From Octopus vulgaris (Eukaryota), in contig OX597820.1 in the NCBI GenBank assembly GCA_951406725.2, positions 71,238,001-71,302,000 on the forward strand: a DNA stretch of 64,000 nt, written 5' to 3'. This document shows, one piece after another, positions 4,669-62,266 of this stretch (positions are counted from its first letter, which is position 1; each line of letters starts with the position of its first letter). Both the position numbers and the translations under genes were made by a program. Below the pieces are notes generated by a model. It was given only the letters and a program-made list of their open reading frames with translations, made no database searches and was not told where the DNA came from.

Positions 4669-4794
4669 TATATATATATATATAAATATATAATCATAAT
4701 TGTTTAACATCGGCCTTCCATGCTGACATGGGGTGAACAGTTTGCCAGGAGCTGGCCAAGTATGGACGTGTAATAAACATATATATATATATAT

Positions 4795-6134: not shown

Positions 6135-8446
6135 AGAGCCAGAAAGGAAGGTAGGAGACAGATTTATTTAGCCAGAGGGGAAGCAGATAAGAAAAAATTT
6201 GCCAATGTTCTGTGCCGTGAGGATCAAAGACTTGAGGTATTTCGTGTTGCAAGACAGTGTGTGAGAGAGAATTGTGATGTATGAAAGAAATGTGTCCGCA
6301 TGGATGATGGTTCTGTATAATTAACCAGGTGATACATGAAGGAGTCATACCCAATGACTGGTGTAGCAGCATAATAGCCAACTGCTACAAAGGTAAAGGT
6401 GACATTTTATATACAAATAATTACAGAGATATCAAGTTGTTGGATCAGGTAAAGAAGGTCATGGAGAAGGTCATAGCCCAACTAATTAGGGAGAGAGTCA
6501 GTTTAGATGAGATGCAGTTTGGGTTTGTGCCAGTGAAAAGTACCACTGATGCTATATTTCTGGTAAGACAGCTGCAGGAGAAATACCAAGCCAAAGATAA
6601 ACCTCTGTACCTGGATTTCGCTGTCATGGAGAAAGCCTTTGACAGGGTCCCCCAATCTCTTATCTGGTGGTCAATGAGGAAACTAGGGATAGATTAATGC
6701 TTAGTGAGAGCTGTGCAAGCCATGTACAGGGATGCTATCAGTAAGGTGAGGGTTGGCAACGAGTACACTGAAGAATTCAGGGTAGAGGTAGGGGTCCACC
6801 AAGGTTCAGATCTCAGCCCCCTCCTATTTATCATAGTCCTCCAGGCAATAACGGAGGAATTCAAGACGGGATGCCGCTGGGAGCTCTTCTATGCTGATGA
6901 CCTTGCTCTAATTGCTGAGTCACTATCAGAACTCGAGGAGAAGTTTCAAGTGTGGAAACAAGGATTAGAGTCAACCTAGCTAATACCAAAGTCCTAATAA
7001 GTAGGAAGGCAAGCAAATCACAAATCCCTTCGGGTAGTTGGCCCTGCTTGATCTGTAGAAAAAGGGTAGGTAGAAACTCAATAAGATGTACCCACTGTAA
7101 GCTACGGACACATAAGAGGTGCAGCAATATCAAAGGAAGGCTAACTGGGAAGATAGTTTTTGTATGTGGCAGATGCTCAGGAGCAATAAACACTGAAAGT
7201 GTGCAGAGAACAAGTTCTGCCACATTCCAGGGAGGAAAACTAGATGCAGCTGATAGCTTCCATTACCTAGGTGATCAAGTCAGTAGCAGGGGAGGGTGTG
7301 CTGAAGGTGTAGCTGCTAGAATAAGAATAGCCTGGGCAAAGTTCAGAGAGCTCTTACCTCTGCTGGTGACAAAGGGCCTCTCACTCAGAGTAAAAGGTAG
7401 ACTGTATGATGCATGTGTACTAACAGCCATGCTACATGGCCGTAAAATATGGGCTGTGACTGCTGAGGGCATGCGTAAGCTTGCAAGGAATGAAGCCACT
7501 ATACTCCGATGGATATGTAATGTCAGTGTGCATACTCCACAGAGTGTAAGTACCTTGAGAGAAAAGTTGGACCTAGGAAGCATCAGATGTGGTATGCAAG
7601 AGAGACAACTGTGCTGGTATGGCCATGTGGCAAGAATGGATGTGGATAGCTGTGTGAAAAAGTGCCATATCCTAGTGGTTGAGGGAATCTGTGGAAGAGG
7701 TAGACCCAAGAAGACCTGGGATGAGGTGGTTAAGGATGACCTTTGAACATTGGCAATGAGTAGTGGCAATAACTAGTGACCGAGTTAAGGACTAGTGACC
7801 GGGACCTTTGGAAATAAGCTGTGCTTGAGAAGACTCGGCAAGCCAAGTGAGACCATAACCTTGTGGCCTATGCCAGGGGTGTAACCAGCCCACTATGCAT
7901 AACTTTCCTTCATTGGACAGTAAACTCTGCTTGCAAAGACCTGTTTTGAGGCAACTGAAATTCAAAATCAAAATCGAAATCAAATTCGATGATTGGCACC
8001 TGTGCTAGTGGAGTGCTAAGAGCACCATCCGAGCATGATATTGCCAGAGCAACAAACTGGCTTCCATGCCAGTGGCATGTAAAAAGCACCATTCAATGGT
8101 GATCGTTACCTGTCACCTAATTGGTACCTGTGCTGGTGGCACATGAAAAAATATTCAAGCGAGGTCATTGCCAGTGCCGCTGGACTGGATTCTGTGCAGA
8201 TGGCACATAAAAAGCACCATTTAAGTGAGGCCATTGCTAGTACCACCTGAATGGCACTCGTGCCAGTCATACATAAATGCACCCACTACACTCACGGAGT
8301 GGTTAGTGCTAGGAAGGGCATCCAGCTGTAGAAACTTTGCAGAATCAGATTGGAGCCTGGTGCAGCTATCTGGTTCTCCAGTCCTCAGTCAAATCGTCCA
8401 ACCCATGCTAGCATGGAAAGCGGATGTTAAACGATGATGATGATGA
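6135..8446 (+). mobile_element. Decayed, 5'-truncated RTE-clade LINE (RT pseudogene plus 3' UTR)
   Basis: Frameshifted ORFs 6329-6697, 6704-6979 and 6952-7746 with QFGFVP, KAFDRV, GVHQGS.LSPLLF and YADDL motifs. Internal deletion near 6320 relative to the 62-64 kb copy. 3' UTR with degenerate ~60-bp units and a (GAT)n tail. Confidence 0.93.
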
Positions 8447-20807: not shown

Positions 20808-21692
20808 TGTGGTCTGATCAATAAGTATCTGGACTGTTGCCATAGTAACGAAGCTTAAGCACACAGAGCGAAACTGATTGGTACAGATTGACCTTGCTGT
20901 GCATGAGCACTTGGTTTTAACATTCTAGCTCACTTCTGTTGTTTACAGCAGTACTTGAAAGGAAGGTGTGTAGCATGTGATTGTCGTATTAATCGTAACA
21001 GAGAAAGCTGAGCAGGGAATCTGCATCAAATTCTGCCAAAAGCTTGGCAATACTTGGTCAGTGGTTCATGCAAAGTTTTCAGAAAGTTTTCATTGTTCTC
21101 AACACAGTCAAGATCTTGTGTAACTGAAACCCGAGTATTGTTTTGATCAGCTGAAAGTAGTTTTGGCACAAACTTGGCAGACATACGTCTCATACCCAAA
21201 TCTTCATTGAAAATGGACGGAACTGAACTGTAACTAATCTGCACATCCTCTGATAACTCACAGATGGTAATTTGACGATTTCCCCTCACAGCTGCATAAA
21301 CATCTGAAATGTTTTTCTCAGTTCTGCTGGTTGTGGGTCTCCCAGAGCGTTTCTCAATATCAACAATATTTTGGTCATCTTGGAAACGTCTGAACCACTT
21401 GTACGCTTGTGTGCAGCTCATACACTCCTCTCCATACACTTTCTTCAACTTTGTGTAGGCCTCTGAGCAGCTATTACGATGACAACTTTCTCTGTCATGG
21501 TCAATGCGATGATCACACGCTACATGCCTTCCTTCCAAGTACTGCTGTAAACAGTGGAAGTGAGGTAGAATGTTAAAACTTTGTGCATATGCACAGCGGA
21601 GTTTAAAGTCAATCTTTGCCAAGCAGCTTCACTCTGCGCGCTGTAGCTTCATTATTAATGCAACTGTCCGGATATTTATTGATCAGCTCTTG
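20808..21692 (-). mobile_element. Non-autonomous mariner derivative (same family as 5228-6105)
   Basis: TA-flanked ends GGTCTGATCAATAAGTATCTGGAC / GTCCGGATATTTATTGATCAG. ORF 21026-21622 gives a mariner N-terminal HTH (KVYGEECMS..QAYKWFRRF..RSGRP..AKFVPKLL) with the catalytic domain deleted. Confidence 0.85.
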
Positions 21693-43387: not shown

Positions 43388-43806
43388 TTAGAGCGAAATA
43401 CGACTTGGAACAACAATTTAATTATTCTTCATATTTAACTCTTCAAAACCAACATGACCGTAGAGTTGTTTAAAGCTGACCTCAATTTGGATCTGGAATA
43501 TCTCTTGATATTCTTGTGTATACCTACACAAATATGCCTCTCAATTTTGTTTCCTCGTTAATTTCAGGAAAATAGATATTTTTTAATGAAATTTTATAAA
43601 ATTAGAGCGAAATACGACTTGGAACAACAATTTATTTATTCTTCATATTTAACTCTTCAAAACCATGACCGCAGAGTTGTGACCTCGATTTGGATCTGGA
43701 ATATCTCTTGATATTCTTGTGTATACCTACACAAATATGCCTCTCAATTTTGTTTCCTCGTTAATTTCAGGAAAATAGATATTTTTTAATGAAATTTTAT
43801 AAAATT
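43388..43806. repeat. Tandem duplication of a ~214-bp unit
   Basis: TTAGAGCGAAATACGACTTGGAAC... starts at both 43388 and 43602; the copies are near-identical with small indels. Confidence 0.9.
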
Positions 43807-44156
43807 ATCTTTCAGATGGTGTTGATTACGATTACGTCGGGATTTAATGTGAAGTAAAGAAAAGAAAATGGTGGGCGCGCACACATACATACTGATGCAT
43901 AATCACATAATTTTTTTCAAAATCTCAAGTTCCATTTTGTAGATAGAATGATGTGATGCGTGTCAGTATGTATGTGTGTGTGCCTTCCATTTTTTCCCGT
44001 TTTACATTAGATTCCAATATAATCGTAATCTACACTATCTGAGAGATATGCTTTTTTTTCTCTTTTTTTTTAGAAAATTTCATTAAAAAATACCAATTTC
44101 TGAAAGTAATGAAGGAAGCAGATTCGGTGGGAAGAAGACACTTGCGTAGGTGTACC
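43720..44156. mobile_element. Old, diverged palindromic (MITE-like) element
   Basis: TATTTTTTAATGAAATTTT...GATTACGATTA...CACACATACATACTGA is mirrored by TCAGTATGTATGTGTG...TAATCGTAATC...AAAATTTCATTAAAAAATA. Confidence 0.6.
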
Positions 44157-44457
44157 CATTAAGCTATACAAACACTGGGCTACAAATAACAGCCAATTCT
44201 CCCTAAAATCTCACTCTGCAGCCTTAAAAAAGAGGAATACGTTAGCAGTACATGGTGTGTAGGGACCCCCCCCCCCAAAAAAAAAAAATTTTTAGATTGA
44301 ATGGTTTTCCTCAATGGTCTTAGAGCGCAGAGGTGGTACTCCCATTAATTATATAATTCAACACTTTCTTCTCCTTTAGAAATGAATATGCAGCGTCAGA
44401 ACTCTGAATGTATGGCAAAATATCATAAAAACATTTTGAATAACAATAAATCGAATT

Positions 44458-47359
44458 GGTACTTGTCAATTGTCGTGGTCCCGGTTTTGCACACGCGAAT
44501 TCGCGCGTGCGCGCCAGACGTAGGTACTCGATACTCGAGATCCTACGAGGTGACTTGCGCATGCGCAGTGCAGAATTCGCGCGTGCGCGTTAACCCCCCC
44601 CCCTAAAAAAAAAAGGTGTTGGATTTCACTAAAAATATATGTGTGTGTGTGTGTGTGTATATATAACATTTTCAATTTTACACAAAAAAATTACATAGTC
44701 GCTTTCCTCGCGGATTTACAGAGAAATGAATTAATTACTATTTTACAGAATAAAATTAATGAATTAATTATATAAATTAAATAATTCTTGAAAATTAATT
44801 AATATTAATAATATTTTTTGAACAAAGTAAATAATTTATAAAACTTGGTTAATAATTTTTTTTACACAAACGCGAACGTATATAATTTGTGAAACTTTTT
44901 TTTTTTACAGACGTATATAATTTGGTAAACTTAATGAATTAATTTCTTCTCATCATCATCATCGTTTAACGTCCGTTCTCCATGCCAGCATGGGTTGGAC
45001 GGTTCGACCGGGGATCTGGGAAGCCAGAAGGCTGCACCAGACTCCAGTCTTATCTGGCAATGTTTCTACAGCTGGATGCCCTTCCTAACGCCAACCACTC
45101 CGAGAGTGTAGTGGGTGCTTTTTACATGCCACCCGCACAGGTGCCAGGCGAGGCTGGCAACGGCCACGGTCGGATTGGTGCCAGTCGAGGCGGCTCTGGC
45201 ATCGGCCACGATTCGGATAGTGCTTTTTACGTACCACCAGTCCAGGGGTCCTGGCATTTGCCGGGTGCCACACTTGCCCCAACATGTCTTCGCAAGCAAA
45301 GGGGGTTGGCATGGGTGCCTGTCGTGGGATGAGGTTCGATATCAACTTCGCTTGCCTCAACAGGTCTTTGTGTATAAATGTATAAATTTTTCGCACTAAA
45401 TTCTTTCCGTAGAATTTATAAAAAAACGCGCAAAATTATTCCGTAGACTTTATCAAATTAAAAAACGCAAAATTAATATATTTTTTGAAATTGCAAATTA
45501 TTTAGAATATAAAACAAATTAAGTTAAATTTTAAAAATAAATGTCATATACTTATACTCTGTAAGGTGCTGTGTTCACACTTCAATTTACTATTTTCTAG
45601 AAATGTTGCTTTTCTAATTGAAACAATTTTTCTCAATCTCCATTTAAAAGTCCATAATGCCTCTTGAGCCATATCAAAATGAACAACTTTGAATTACCCG
45701 GTGGTGGTGGTGGTGGTGTGAGGTTCTAATTTTTTTTCTGATCTCTCTTTGCCCCCTCTTTATCTCAGTTGTTCATTCAGCTAATATTTAGAAAAATTTT
45801 CGCGCCCAATTTTTGTTGTCGCGGGAAAAGATGAACGATTTAAAATAAATATATCTTAATTGTAGTGTGAGAAAGTATATATATTCTGATGACAAAATAT
45901 ATTATCTTTCAAAAACATCCCAAATTTATAGACTATATCGTGTAGGTTTAAGAAATATATATATATATATATATATAGATATAGATATATATATATATAC
46001 ATATATAAGTAGAGAATGAAACATCTTTCATCTGTCTCCCCACCACACCTCCATCTAGGGGGGGCAAAGAGAGATCAGAAAAAAAATTAGAACCTCACAC
46101 CACCACCACCACCGGGTAATTCAAAGTTGTTCATTTTGATATGGCTCAAGAGGCATTATGGACTTTTAAATGGAGATTGAGAAAAATTGTTTCAATTAGA
46201 AAAGCAACATTTCTAGAAAATAGTAAATTGAAGTGTGAACACAGCACCTTACAGAGTATAAGTATATGACATTTATTTTTAAAATTTAACTTAATTTGTT
46301 TTATATTCTAAATAATTTGCAATTTCAAAAAATATATTAATTTTGCGTTTTTCAATTTGATAAAGTCTACGGAATAATTTTGCGCGTTTTTTTATAAATT
46401 CTACGGAAAGAATTTAGTGCGAAAAATTTATACATTTATACACAAAGACCTGTTGAGGCAAGCGAAGTTGATATCGAACCTCATCCCACGACAGGCACCC
46501 ATGCCAACCCCCTTTGCTTGCGAAGACATGTTGGGGCAAGTGTGGCACCCGGCAAATGCCAGGACCCCTGGACTGGTGGTACGTAAAAAGCACTATCCGA
46601 ATCGTGGCCGATGCCAGAGCCGCCTCGACTGGCACCAATCCGACCGTGGCCGTTGCCAGCCTCGCCTGGCACCTGTGCGGGTGGCATGTAAAAAGCACCC
46701 ACTACACTCTCGGAGTGGTTGGCGTTAGGAAGGGCATCCAGCTGTAGAAACATTGCCAGATAAGACTGGAGTCTGGTGCAGCCTTCTGGCTTCCCAGATC
46801 CCCGGTCGAACCGTCCAACCCATGCTGGCATGGAGAACGGACGTTAAACGATGATGATGATGAGAAGAAATTAATTCATTAAGTTTACCAAATTATATAC
46901 GTCTGTAAAAAAAAAAGTTTCACAAATTATATACGTTCGCGTTTGTGTAAAAAAAATTATTAACCAAGTTTTATAAATTATTTACTTTGTTCAAAAAATA
47001 TTATTAATATTAATTAATTTTCAAGAATTATTTAATTTATATAATTAATTCATTAATTTTATTCTGTAAAATAGTAATTAATTCATTTCTCTGTAAATCC
47101 GCGAGGAAAGCGACTATGTAATTTTTTTGTGTAAAATTGAAAATGTTATATATACACACACACACACACACATATATTTTTAGTGAAATCCAACACCTTT
47201 TTTTTTTTAGGGGGGGGGTGGTTAACGCGCACGCGCGAATTCTGCACTGCGCATGCGCAAGTCACCTCGTAGGATCTCGAGTATCGAGTACCTACGTCTG
47301 GCGCGCGCGCGCGCGCATTCGCGTGTGCAAAACCGGGACCACGACAATTGACAAGTACC
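44458..47359. mobile_element. 2.9-kb non-coding fold-back DNA transposon (Merlin-like termini)
   Basis: Arms 44458-45756 and 46060-47359 are near-perfect reverse complements around a 303-bp spacer. Termini GGTACTTG...CAAGTACC. Perfect 8-bp direct repeat ATCGAATT at 44450-44457 and 47360-47367. Confidence 0.88.
44951..45372 (-). mobile_element. RTE LINE 3' tail nested in the left fold-back arm (mirror copy at ~46441-46862 on +)
   Basis: (CAT)n, RTE tail and minisatellite units; the ORF-track translations are identical in the two arms. Confidence 0.9.
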
Positions 47360-50300
47360 ATCGAATTATAGCTAAATGAATAATATTTTATTTCACTTTC
47401 AAAATTGTTTTATTTTCACTTAATGACGAGCGCAAGTCCTCTCTTCATCATGAAGTACCAAGGCAGCGAGCTGCCTTTACGTTCTGTGTTCAAATTCCAC
47501 CGAGGCGACTTTGCTTTTCATCCTTTCGAGGTCGATAAAATAAATGTAATCGATTTATTCCTTCCTCGAAATTACTGGCCTTGTGCCAAAATTTGAAACT
47601 AATCTAGAGGGGCTTCTGCTCGGTCACTCAGATTGCTGGAAATAATTAATAACTTAATTTTCTTAAATTACATAGTGAATAAAAGGGTAAGATAGGACCA
47701 CAGAATTTAGTGTAGACCTAGATATACAAAAAGACGGAATGATCGTGGATGGAACGTCTTTTCTATAATCCCTGTCCCATGTATAATAACAAGTACTGAA
47801 CGTAATCTCCGAGGGTTCCTCTGTGTTGTCGATCGAGCCATTAGAAATAGCAGCTAGACAGACGCAGAATTCACTTTTCGTTTGACATCTAAAAATTTCA
47901 TTTTGTTATTTCCCTCTTTGCATTTTTTAAAATGTAAATTACAAGCCTTATCAGGGAATACTATAACAAAAATAATTTGAATCGTGAAAAGTACGACGGA
48001 GGTGATGGGTTACGAAAAATTTTCTCCAAAAATGCGATTCAAAATGTGGAATATTACAACATGTCAAAGGATAACGAAAATGGAGGAAAAAATGATAGCT
48101 GTTGTTTGGAAGGAAGGATGACGTGGAAGAAGCGAGATGGACTTTTTAAAAAAAAGTCTGCTCTCAAATGTTTTGAAAAGTGGGATTCTATAAAATGAGA
48201 GGAAAAAAAAGCTTCCGATTTATGTGTGACAGCTATTCCGAAAATCCGCCCAATCGCCATATAATTGTCGCTCAACCTGTCTGTCAAATAATAGGCGCGG
48301 AACTGGCAGTCATTTGAGTGCAAGGCTTATGGTTTTGAGTTCAAATCTCATTGAGAATTACCTTTTATCTTTTTTAGACTCAATAAAATAAAGGATGGTC
48401 CTTGTGAAAGTGAAATACATACACCATATGAATAAGGTACGGGAATCCTTTATCGAGAAGTGGGCCGCAATGAGACGAAGCTCATCAACCGGGTCGCACA
48501 AATAAAAAAGTTCAAGGTTTTTCAATGGCATACATTGCAAAAAAGTCCTGCGTACCGTAGTTTGCCCGTAACTCATGAATATACTACAAAGCCGTAATTG
48601 TTTTGTACGGTTTTACTTTTCTCGAACGGTATAGTGGAATTTAAAGTAGGTTGTTTCTAATATAGCACAAAAAACCCTAAGAAAAGAAATGAACAAAAAA
48701 TGGAACAATAAATGTCACATAAAATTCAAAGTTAGTTCGCATTATTTTACATGGTGTTTCATGAAAAGAATGAAAGCAAATATGCCATTTGACAGAAGTA
48801 AAAAATACTGCTTTCTGATTTAGGCAAAAAGACATTTTGTGGAGCGTGGTAACTGACAATTATCAACATCAGTACCTAACTGATACTTTATCTACTCTGA
48901 AAGTCAGAGTTGATATCAACAGTCTTTGAACTCAGAATGTAAAGGGTCTGAATAAATTTCGCATAGTGGAAGTTGTGAATTAGAAGAATGGCGAACCTTC
49001 GGTGTAAGTACCGGAAGTACTGGATACATTTCAAAAAAGTGTTTTTTTTTATATATGGGGGCGGGGGCTGTTTAGGGTTTGGGTTAGGCATGGGAGAAAA
49101 GGGTTTCTGTTATCTTCAGAAATGTAAACAAAGTCACTCGTGTACATATACCGAAGCATCGCCAAGGGCAATCTTTCGGTATTGGTACGCAACGTCATTT
49201 ATCCACACAACCTTCCTTCATGATATAAAGAGGCTAGTCTCGTCTCCTGATACCGACTCTATAGACAATTGTCGAAGGATCACCATGGAGAAATACCGCA
49301 AGATATCTCCTTTCAACGTTCAAACGATTTAACACCACCACCCGGTCCTTAGATATTTCCAAGTATTTCTTCCGACGCTCTGCAACCTCGCCGCTTTTTT
49401 GTGCCAGAATTAAGATACACGATGCTCGAATATTTGTGATAAACTCATTTTAGGCGCTGACCTGGCCTAAAAGCAACGACTATTCATTATTAAGCTAAAT
49501 AAAGAACTTGAAAGTTGCTTAAATGAAATAATTTCTCATTACTCTAGGGACAAGTAAAACACACTAGTTAGATTTTTGAATAAGGAAAAGGTTAAAAAAT
49601 ATTTTTGTGGCATTAAATCACCTTTTGAAGTTTACATTTGTTTTTCTTTTGCCACAGTTAAGAATCTCAGTATGTTTTCATATATGAAAAAGGAGTATAT
49701 TAAAAGGAATGCAAAGCCTGTTTGTATTGTGAACCTCAACACGTTACTTTATTGTTCTTTTCTTTTTATTTTTCTCCAAATAACTATTAGTTCTTACATC
49801 TCTTTTAATATTCTTTTTTATGTGACAACCTGCTGAGATTCCTAACACAAACAATCTTTGCATCTTTTTTTTTTTAGTATGCTTTTTCATATATAAAAAA
49901 CATGTTGAGGTTCATAACACAAACATTCTTCTCTTCCCTATTAATGTACGCTCATGAACACAGAAGTTCTGCCGTGACGAAAAAATAAAAATGAAAACCT
50001 AGAGAAGTTGTTACGGAAGCTAAAATATTTTTTTATCCAAGGAAAATCTAGCTTTAAATGTAAAACATCACATACATCCCGTACATCATTACATAATCCA
50101 TTTAAGGTTAACAAGTATAGTGTCGAAAAATTCGCTTCTTTTTTGTACCCCGAAAGCGCTATTCGGCATAGTTTGTACAATTATATAATGTTGATGTAAC
50201 CGCAGTTTAGTCATTCGTATTTTGTGAAAGCAATTACTTGGAGAATTAATTGTATTTCTAGGGAATAAATATTGTAAATGATGTTTGCATTCTGTTTCAT

Positions 50301-52850: not shown

Positions 52851-53628
52851 GGATCTTTTCCTTTTGAACGGCACTTTTCAACACAATTTCTAGTTAACTA
52901 AACACTTTTAAACTTCGTATACTGGTAGAATGTGTTTATAAAACATCATTTTCTCTTGGCTTTATTGAGAAAATTCTATATGTTGTAACATATTTCGTCT
53001 TTAATTTCGAGCATTTCGGCAATTTTAACCAATCGCTGACCTCCATATAGGTAAATAACATTCTGTGCATAATGAATATGTCCCTCCTTTAAGAAACAGA
53101 TTGGGTTTATTTACATTTGTGAAGAAAAAAGATACCCTTCCCCTAACTAAATCTAAAATAGATTGAAATGCAATAGATCGATACTAGGGTTATAGTTATG
53201 GGTGACAATTTCATACGACACCGCTACGGAAAATTGGATTTTTTTCTAGCTGTGTCAAATGAAAATGTCACCATAATTATGTCCCAAGTATCGATCTATT
53301 GCATTTCAATCTATTTTAGATTTAGGGTTAGTTAGGGGAAGGGTATCTTTTTTTCTTCACGAATGTAAATAAACCCAATCTGTTTCTTAAAGGAGGGACA
53401 TATTCACTATGCACAGAATGTTATTTACCTAAATGGAAGTTAGCGATTGGTTAAAATTGCCGAAATGCTCGAAATTAAAGACGAAATATGTTACAACATA
53501 TAGAATTTTCTCAATAAAGCCAAGAGAAAATGATGTTTTATAAACACATTCTACCAGTATACGAAGTTTAAAACTTTTTAGTTACCTTGAAATTATGTTA
53601 CAAAGTGCCGTTCAAAAGGAAAAGATCC
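52851..53628. mobile_element. 778-bp fully palindromic MITE (Merlin-like termini)
   Basis: GGATCTTTTCCTTTTGAACGGCAC...GTGCCGTTCAAAAGGAAAAGATCC; the arms pair almost to the centre (~53236). Flanks TGTAAATG / TGTAAGTG give an 8-bp TSD with one mismatch. Confidence 0.85.
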
Positions 53629-61140: not shown

Positions 61141-61542
61141 GACAAAAACTTTTGAGAGGGGAGGGGCAATTAGAGGAGGTGATCTTGTGTCAGATAATGA
61201 AAGGTTGTAGTAAGACAGGTGTTTTGCTGTAGAGGAGGTACAAGGTTACGAGAGAGAGAGCTTACATTGTTGAAATCACATTCACTTAAAAATCATGTAG
61301 TTAAGAAGTGAAATTCTTAACTATATAACCAAGTTGTAAACTAGATTAAGAATCAAATTTACTTTCATTATACACATCATCATCATCATCATCATTTAGC
61401 GTCCGCTTTCCATGCTAGCATGGGTTTGGACGGGTCAACTGGGGTCTGTGAAGCTGGAAGGCTTCGTCAGGCCCAGTCAGATCTGGCAGTGTTTCTACGG
61501 CTGGATGCCCTTCCTAACGCCAACCACTCCGCGAGTGTAGTG

Positions 61543-62218
61543 GGTGTTTTTTTACGTGCCACCTGCACAGGTGCCAGACAGAGCTGGCGAACGGCCACGA
61601 ACGGATGGTGCTTTTACGTGTCACCGGGACGGGGCCAGGCAGAGCTGGCAAACGGCCACGAACGGAGGGTGCTTTTACGTGTCACCGGCACGGGGGCCAG
61701 CCGAGGCTGACAACGAACACGAACGGATGGTGCTTTTACGTGCCACCGACACGGGACCAGACAGAGCTGGCAAACAGCCACAAACGGACGGTGCTTTTAC
61801 GTGTCACCGGCACGGGGGCCAGCCGAGGCTGGCAACGGACGCGAACGGATGGTGCTTTTACGTGCCACCGACACGGTTGCCAGACAGTGCTGGCAAACAG
61901 CCACGAACGGACGGTGCTTTTACGTGTCACCGGCACGGGGGCCAGCCGAGGCTGGCAACGGACACGAACGGATGGTGCTTTTACGTGCCACCGACACGGG
62001 GCCAAACAGAGCTGGCAAACGGCCACGAACGGACGGTGCTTTTACGTGTCACCGGCACGGGGCCAGACAGAGCTGGCAACGAACACGAACTGATGGTGCT
62101 TTTACGTGCCACCAACACGGGGGCCAGGCAGAGCTGGCAAACGGCCACGAGCGAATGGTGCTTTTACGTATCACCGGCACGGGTGCCAGACGAGGCTGAC
62201 AGCGGACACGAACGGATG
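61543..62218. repeat. Minisatellite of 11 units of ~61 bp in the RTE 3' UTR
   Basis: GGTG(C)TTTTACGT starts at 61543, 61607, 61668, 61729, 61790, 61851, 61913, 61974, 62035, 62095 and 62157. Confidence 0.95.
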
Positions 62219-62266
62219 GGTCACTTAACCCCTGCTTTCTGATATATGATTTGATTTTGATTGTTC

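Follow-up and report, generated by a model that had tools for sequence, protein, structure and literature searches.

The window analysed here is a stretch of 64,000 bp of Octopus vulgaris DNA, and all coordinates refer to it. At 44458-47359 it contains a foldback element of 2,902 bp, most of which is made up of long terminal inverted repeats (TIRs; 1,302 + 1,303 of 2,902 bp). The left arm (44458-45759, forward strand) starts with GG and forms an inverted repeat with the right arm (46057-47359, reverse strand); between them lies a non-coding spacer of 297 bp (45760-46056), which possesses an (AT)n tract at 45955-46007 and has no other match within the 64-kb window. The element is bordered by a perfect 8-bp target-site duplication, ATCGAATT, with the same letters at 44450-44457 and at 47360-47367; at the local composition, the probability of such an 8-mer match by chance is about 3e-5. 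The element ends read GGTAC...GTACC. The same letters also permit an alternative register with a 6-bp duplication and ends situated one base further out (TGG ends), and no register with a 9-bp duplication fits at the element ends.

The two arms differ by four substitutions in 1,298 aligned columns (at 44501, 44508, 45460 and 45757) and by five indel events (9 gap columns), all of the latter in simple runs. Divergence is low over the whole length of the arms, and the longest perfect run from arm to arm measures 563 bp (44897-45459). A GC-rich subterminal hairpin of putative function is situated at 44477-44595 on the forward strand (fold of 44458-44620: -34.5 kcal/mol, z -3.28, with none of 200 shuffles as good). 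This GC- and CpG-rich hairpin is present in each arm and holds two of the four arm substitutions.

Only two frames of at least 120 aa exist in the element, both antisense over the tails described below, and a Pfam search of these two frames gave no match; with no Pfam-matching frame, the element is therefore regarded as non-coding. Transposases were found neither inside the element nor linked to it. The long TIRs, the target duplication, a dispersed family with an apparent empty site (see below) and an interior free of transposase are the features of a foldback transposon, and the element is likely to be a non-autonomous cut-and-paste DNA transposon.

The mirrored tail and its LINE family

Each arm contains the 5'-truncated 3' UTR of a LINE ending in (GAT)n, at 44950-45370 in the left arm (reverse strand) and at 46443-46863 in the right arm (forward strand), such that the (GAT)n end points outward in each arm. 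Both copies are letter-identical: 44951-45372 is the exact reverse complement of 46441-46862, and this identity extends over 50 bp of flank on each side. An earlier sequence-only reading had described a tail of about 420 bp with the same junctions in both arms and had named differing junctions as evidence that would speak against it; the tail was found as described, and the junctions are identical. The location given in that reading stands, and its tail ends need adjustment, with (GAT)n reaching 44950 and 46863 and the LINE homology starting at around 45370 and 46443. None of the arm differences lies inside the tail, and one substitution is situated 90 bp from it. The tail is without coding capacity and has a GC content of 0.57, versus 0.32 and 0.28 in the adjoining parts of the arm. 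A scan for target-site duplications flanking the tail was negative for the arm copy, and retrotransposition as its route of entry is therefore an assumption; since the same scan yielded no convincing duplication for the eight other tail copies of the window either, this absence does not discriminate.

The tail matches at least nine other pieces of the window with 66-89% identity, and window copies of its family are located at 4794, 8275, 13251, 19471, 29852, 35417, 60846 and 61380. In the last of these (61380-62240), an internal repeat unit of the 3' UTR is expanded into an array (blast pieces 61667-62221). A longer, decayed and likewise 5'-truncated LINE copy of the same family, whose 3' UTR aligns with the tail, lies outside the foldback at 6250-8446 (forward strand). 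It exhibits an RVT_1 match at 6308-6694 (E 3.4e-08), and its frame 6919-7743 matches proteins with reverse transcriptase (RT) and PHD, the PHD-like finger following the RT; the closest named proteins are those of Octopus vulgaris (82%) and O. bimaculoides. The stop codon of this copy is at 7848, and homology to the tail starts about 85 bp past it, so that the insert in the arms comprises 3' UTR only. Continuity with an RT frame, 5' truncation and a simple-repeat 3' end thus characterise the tail as the 3' end of a LINE.

Concerning the type of LINE, PF03372 (APE) and PF00078 (RT) occur together in one frame of 1,047-1,118 aa in 10 of 30 longer relatives, whose contigs measure 3.4-4.0 kb; these ten are 37-45% identical to the window frame, and the long copy in the window is truncated before the APE domain. 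Comparison of the RT against PDB gave L1 and R2 proteins only. Absence of ORF1, in elements of about 3.2-4 kb, is a mark of the RTE clade. The earlier reading had called the tail RTE; the RVT_1 match, the RT and PHD matches and the APE and RT relatives support a LINE with RTE-type layout, and from its sequence the LINE is likely an RTE. In the available parts of the respective papers, a single ORF is described for the RTE layout (PMC9115989), and RTE-BovB LINEs of about 3.2-3.6 kb are reported as greatly expanded in cephalopods (PMC10294476). According to the same excerpts, the cephalopod RTE-BovB elements share with the family studied here a single long frame with APE and RT as well as a microsatellite 3' end (PMC10294476, PMC9115989). 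RTE-2_OV is probably a different family: in the excerpts seen, it is described as having a C2H2 finger and a 3' UTR that consists mostly of microsatellite, whereas the present family carries its PHD-like finger after the RT. The MELT table of PMC9115989 contains neither CATCATC nor GATGATG and was of no use for naming the family.

Related sequences in public runs

Four public runs were compared with the left flank, the left arm and part of the spacer (44100-45945), namely the contig runs X1 and X3, the latter from a related organism (organism B), and the raw-read runs X20 and X21. The flank was found at single-copy depth (57 in X1, 46 in X3), whereas the arm bins reached depths of 9,000-150,000 (X1) and 2,500-110,000 (X3), which are sums over contigs and not copy numbers. 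Single contigs give floors: in X3, an arm contig of 108 bp occurs at about 100 times single-copy depth, and a contig comprising the joint of arm end and spacer at about 30 times. The element belongs to a multi-copy family. The target flank at 44349-44457 is itself low-copy, with about three related sequences in both contig runs. From X20 and X21, 16 and 30 of 12.9 million reads each matched, all of them on the tail; both runs are labelled as the same species as X1, yet they contain almost no matches, even to the very abundant LINE tail.

A single-copy contig of 632 bp in X3 matches the flank with two substitutions and three gaps, stops exactly at 44457, where the left target duplication ends, and continues with at least 134 letters unlike the arm. 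It likely represents the empty site in organism B, and from this empty-looking site and the perfect duplication the insertion is likely young.

At 44847-8, both arms of the present copy carry GG, which accounts for about 99% of the depth in X1, versus AA with 67% in X3. As a state found in over half of the arms must sit in left as well as right arms, arm-to-arm copying is hinted to be recurrent, and homogenisation of arms probably recurs in the family, the signal being weak because the depths are sums.

No second tail-carrying copy was seen in the contigs of X1 and X3, which are short and cannot phase the arms. No precise tail-less arm joint is present among those listed (15 of at least 128 joints, 12 of at least 286 filled joints and 16 of about 184,000 pieces). 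The only tail-skipping joint among those listed is from X3 and connects 44883 to 45425, at about 42 times single-copy depth; besides the tail, it eliminates a further 67 and about 52 bases. A second listed joint of X3 connects 44538 to 44856 with 18 other letters, at about 35 times single-copy depth. Taken together, both joints suggest that organism B has a shortened arm form without the tail; as its breakpoints lie outside the insert, this form may have arisen by deletion rather than being ancestral. At 45326, the residual depth is near arm depth (about 33,600 in X1 and 24,800 in X3), which was considered as an indication that most arms carry the tail; this argument was rejected, because the residue also includes alleles below 5% that are not listed, and the majority base is part of a CpG.

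Exact-motif scans gave no match in viral contigs and none in prokaryote genomes, and those of metagenomes gave 0 and 2 matches. The two metagenome matches (L001, L002) share only 28 bp with the element, are situated in an integrase-like gene of bacteria and are attributed to chance. A search of four of the eight supplements of PMC9115989 for six short arm motifs gave no match, and the transcriptomes of that study may contain copies.

Origin of the doubled tail

The two tails share their site, 5' truncation point, length and mirror orientation. Within their 3'-most 175 bp there are, in addition, six sites at which the base common to both arms occurs in no more than one of the eight other window copies, and at three of these six it is found in none of the eight; arm-specific bases include those at 44986, 45009 and 45051; at 44986 and 45326, another base makes up about 95-98% of the summed contig depth of X1 and X3. 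Taken together, these shared features exclude two independent insertions in practice. With about 100,000 matching contigs per contig run and at least nine further pieces in the window, the tail family is highly abundant, which would raise the chance of two LINE insertions at the same site in each arm; however, the same base out of about 880 would have to be hit twice with the same truncation point and tail length, in mirror orientation and with the same minority bases, which renders this explanation extremely improbable. A single shared origin of both tails is thus effectively shown. The sequence-only reading had judged independent identical insertions implausible and had proposed one insertion followed by copying from arm to arm, through conversion or through inverted duplication of one end, and the shared site, truncation, length, orientation and rare bases support it in both respects.

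It is also very unlikely that assembly or polishing made the arms alike, or that the second arm is the product of a fold-back read. The raw runs X20 and X21, with no reads on the flank, on arm-only sequence or on the spacer, say nothing about the locus. The arms have kept four substitutions and five indels, one difference being situated only 90 bp from the tail, and the unique flanks, the unique spacer and the perfect duplication are unlike what such a read gives. Furthermore, the joint of arm end and spacer is found in independent contigs of organism B.

We consider it fairly probable that a single entry of the LINE tail into one arm was followed by its transfer to the opposite one, and that the composite subsequently jumped to the present site as a unit. 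In a first step, an ancestral member of the family would have received a 5'-truncated copy of an RTE-type LINE in one of its arms. Homologous repair templated by the opposite arm, or by the like arm of another copy, would then have transferred the tail together with its junctions, by conversion or template switching during the repair of a break or of an excision gap. Finally, a transposase acting in trans would have moved the composite here recently; it may have been of Merlin type, as suggested by the GG ends and the 8-bp duplication. The tail would be a passenger in this process, and the DNA transposon likely moves with the doubled tail as cargo, the element being multi-copy and its site apparently empty in organism B; the young insertion favours a composite that existed before the jump. 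The stretch without substitutions around the tail was also considered as a conversion tract; this was rejected, as such a stretch is not significant given the arm-wide rate (P ~0.14).

Low divergence along the entire length of the arms would equally be expected if the tail had landed in internal single-copy DNA near a short TIR and the complete end of 1.3 kb had later been duplicated as an inverted copy at the opposite end. Such a route (TIR1-F1-F1-TIR2, TIR extension) is proposed for Galileo in the sections available, where the longest Galileo TIRs (1.1-1.26 kb) belong to non-autonomous copies with two TIRs (PMC3573991); moreover, with Merlin TIRs given as 24-462 bp in the accessible text, arms of 1.3 kb need extension if the element is a Merlin derivative. 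The shift from GG to AA at 44847-8 between X1 and X3 points, weakly, to repeated exchange instead, and duplication of the whole end seems unlikely on balance, a single copy being insufficient for separating it from local conversion.

Comparably improbable is an origin in place, in which a tail-less element inserted first, the tail landed and was converted at this locus, and a one-off composite resulted that never moved. The perfect run of 563 bp centred on the tail, the abundant tail-less arm form in organism B and the contigs of X1 and X3, in which no second composite copy was seen, are in agreement with it. However, the empty-looking site in a close relative and the perfect duplication leave little time for two rare events, and no precise tail-less joint is present among the X1 joints listed, although an abundant one would be expected if the tail were missing from most arms. 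Insertion into one arm, copying to the other and a subsequent jump of the composite thus remain the preferred sequence of events.

Comparison with Galileo, Merlin and other elements

The closest parallel is described for Galileo, a foldback element of the P superfamily. In the parts of PMC4168063 available, the copies 112, 145 and 147 of Drosophila willistoni carry fragments of P, Mar and 1360 in both TIRs, and copies 145 and 147 possess the same 1360 fragments with different target duplications; its authors propose insertion into one TIR and subsequent transfer to the other. As in the octopus element, these copies are non-autonomous and have two TIRs (about 1-4.7 kb in Galileo). Despite this similarity, there are differences according to the same source: the cargo named for Galileo consists of fragments of DNA transposons, versus a LINE 3' UTR in the octopus; target duplications mostly measure 7 bp in Galileo and 8 bp here; and spread of the composite is demonstrated in Galileo, whereas one tail-carrying copy is seen in the octopus (PMC4168063). 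For Galileo of Drosophila mojavensis, extension of TIRs by repair from the opposite TIR is described in the accessible sections of PMC3573991; there, too, long TIRs are 98-100% alike within a copy, but it is the element's own internal sequence that is recruited into the TIRs and not, as here, a retroelement.

In the literature searched, mainly open-access papers and these in part, neither an element with a LINE tail in each of its TIRs nor any mention of the present octopus element was encountered. The process is already known from Galileo, and what is new is the LINE tail as cargo, the Merlin-like ends, and the host and family. With the principle in print for Galileo, the gain is a new system and not a new mechanism. 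The tail constitutes a dated and polarised marker of how long TIRs stay alike, and a count of family copies by the number of arms that bear the tail (0, 1 or 2) would yield the rate and the route of arm-to-arm exchange in a young, multi-copy family. Furthermore, a DNA transposon may have amplified some of the LINE-looking copies of the genome, and LINE counts and age profiles would then be slightly biased.

Concerning the superfamily, Merlin elements are described in the accessible part of PMC8101967 with TIRs beginning with 5'-GG and with target duplications of 8-9 bp, and the ends and duplication found here agree with this in the 8-bp register only. TIRs of Merlin are reported, in the source as available, at 24-462 bp. 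For Octopus vulgaris, 18 Merlin families are given in the portion of PMC13282606 seen, with 11 recently active insertions over 28,998 bp. As the arms of 1.3 kb exceed the reported range and no transposase is linked to the element, the latter is Merlin-like only. Tetris, a Mutator-type foldback, also possesses long TIRs and is non-autonomous, with duplications of 8-10 bp (PMC4079207, in part), and in Pack-MULEs, according to the available text of PMC3310237, acquired sequence can likewise be built into extended TIRs; the duplications of MULEs are usually given as 9-11 bp in the text at hand, whereas no 9-bp register fits the present element.

It is rather doubtful that the element belongs to an active foldback family of Merlin type, its arms being about three times as long as the longest reported for Merlin, which has fixed the RTE 3' UTR in both arms and spreads it through the octopus genome by cut-and-paste. 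If this were true, copies in transcribed regions would form a perfect 420-bp RTE hairpin within a stem of 1.3 kb, and such a hairpin would be a ready substrate for A-to-I editing or for the production of small RNAs against the host's most abundant LINE.

The window scan found only one other element of such structure, an unrelated near-palindrome of 778 bp at 52851-53628, which is possibly another Merlin-like MITE; its ends are GG, and its 8-bp duplication contains one mismatch (TGTAAATG/TGTAAGTG). Upstream of the foldback, at 43388-43807, there is a tandem near-identical duplication (128 bp at a spacing of 203 bp and 64 bp at a spacing of 214 bp), which is followed at 43806-44099 by small nested inverted repeats; the Rfam search gave only a sub-threshold match to mir-3149, situated within the latter and thus outside the element. 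A frame at 21029-21628 on the reverse strand matches a Mos1-type HTH_48 domain (E 2.9e-07) and represents the remnant of a mariner transposase.
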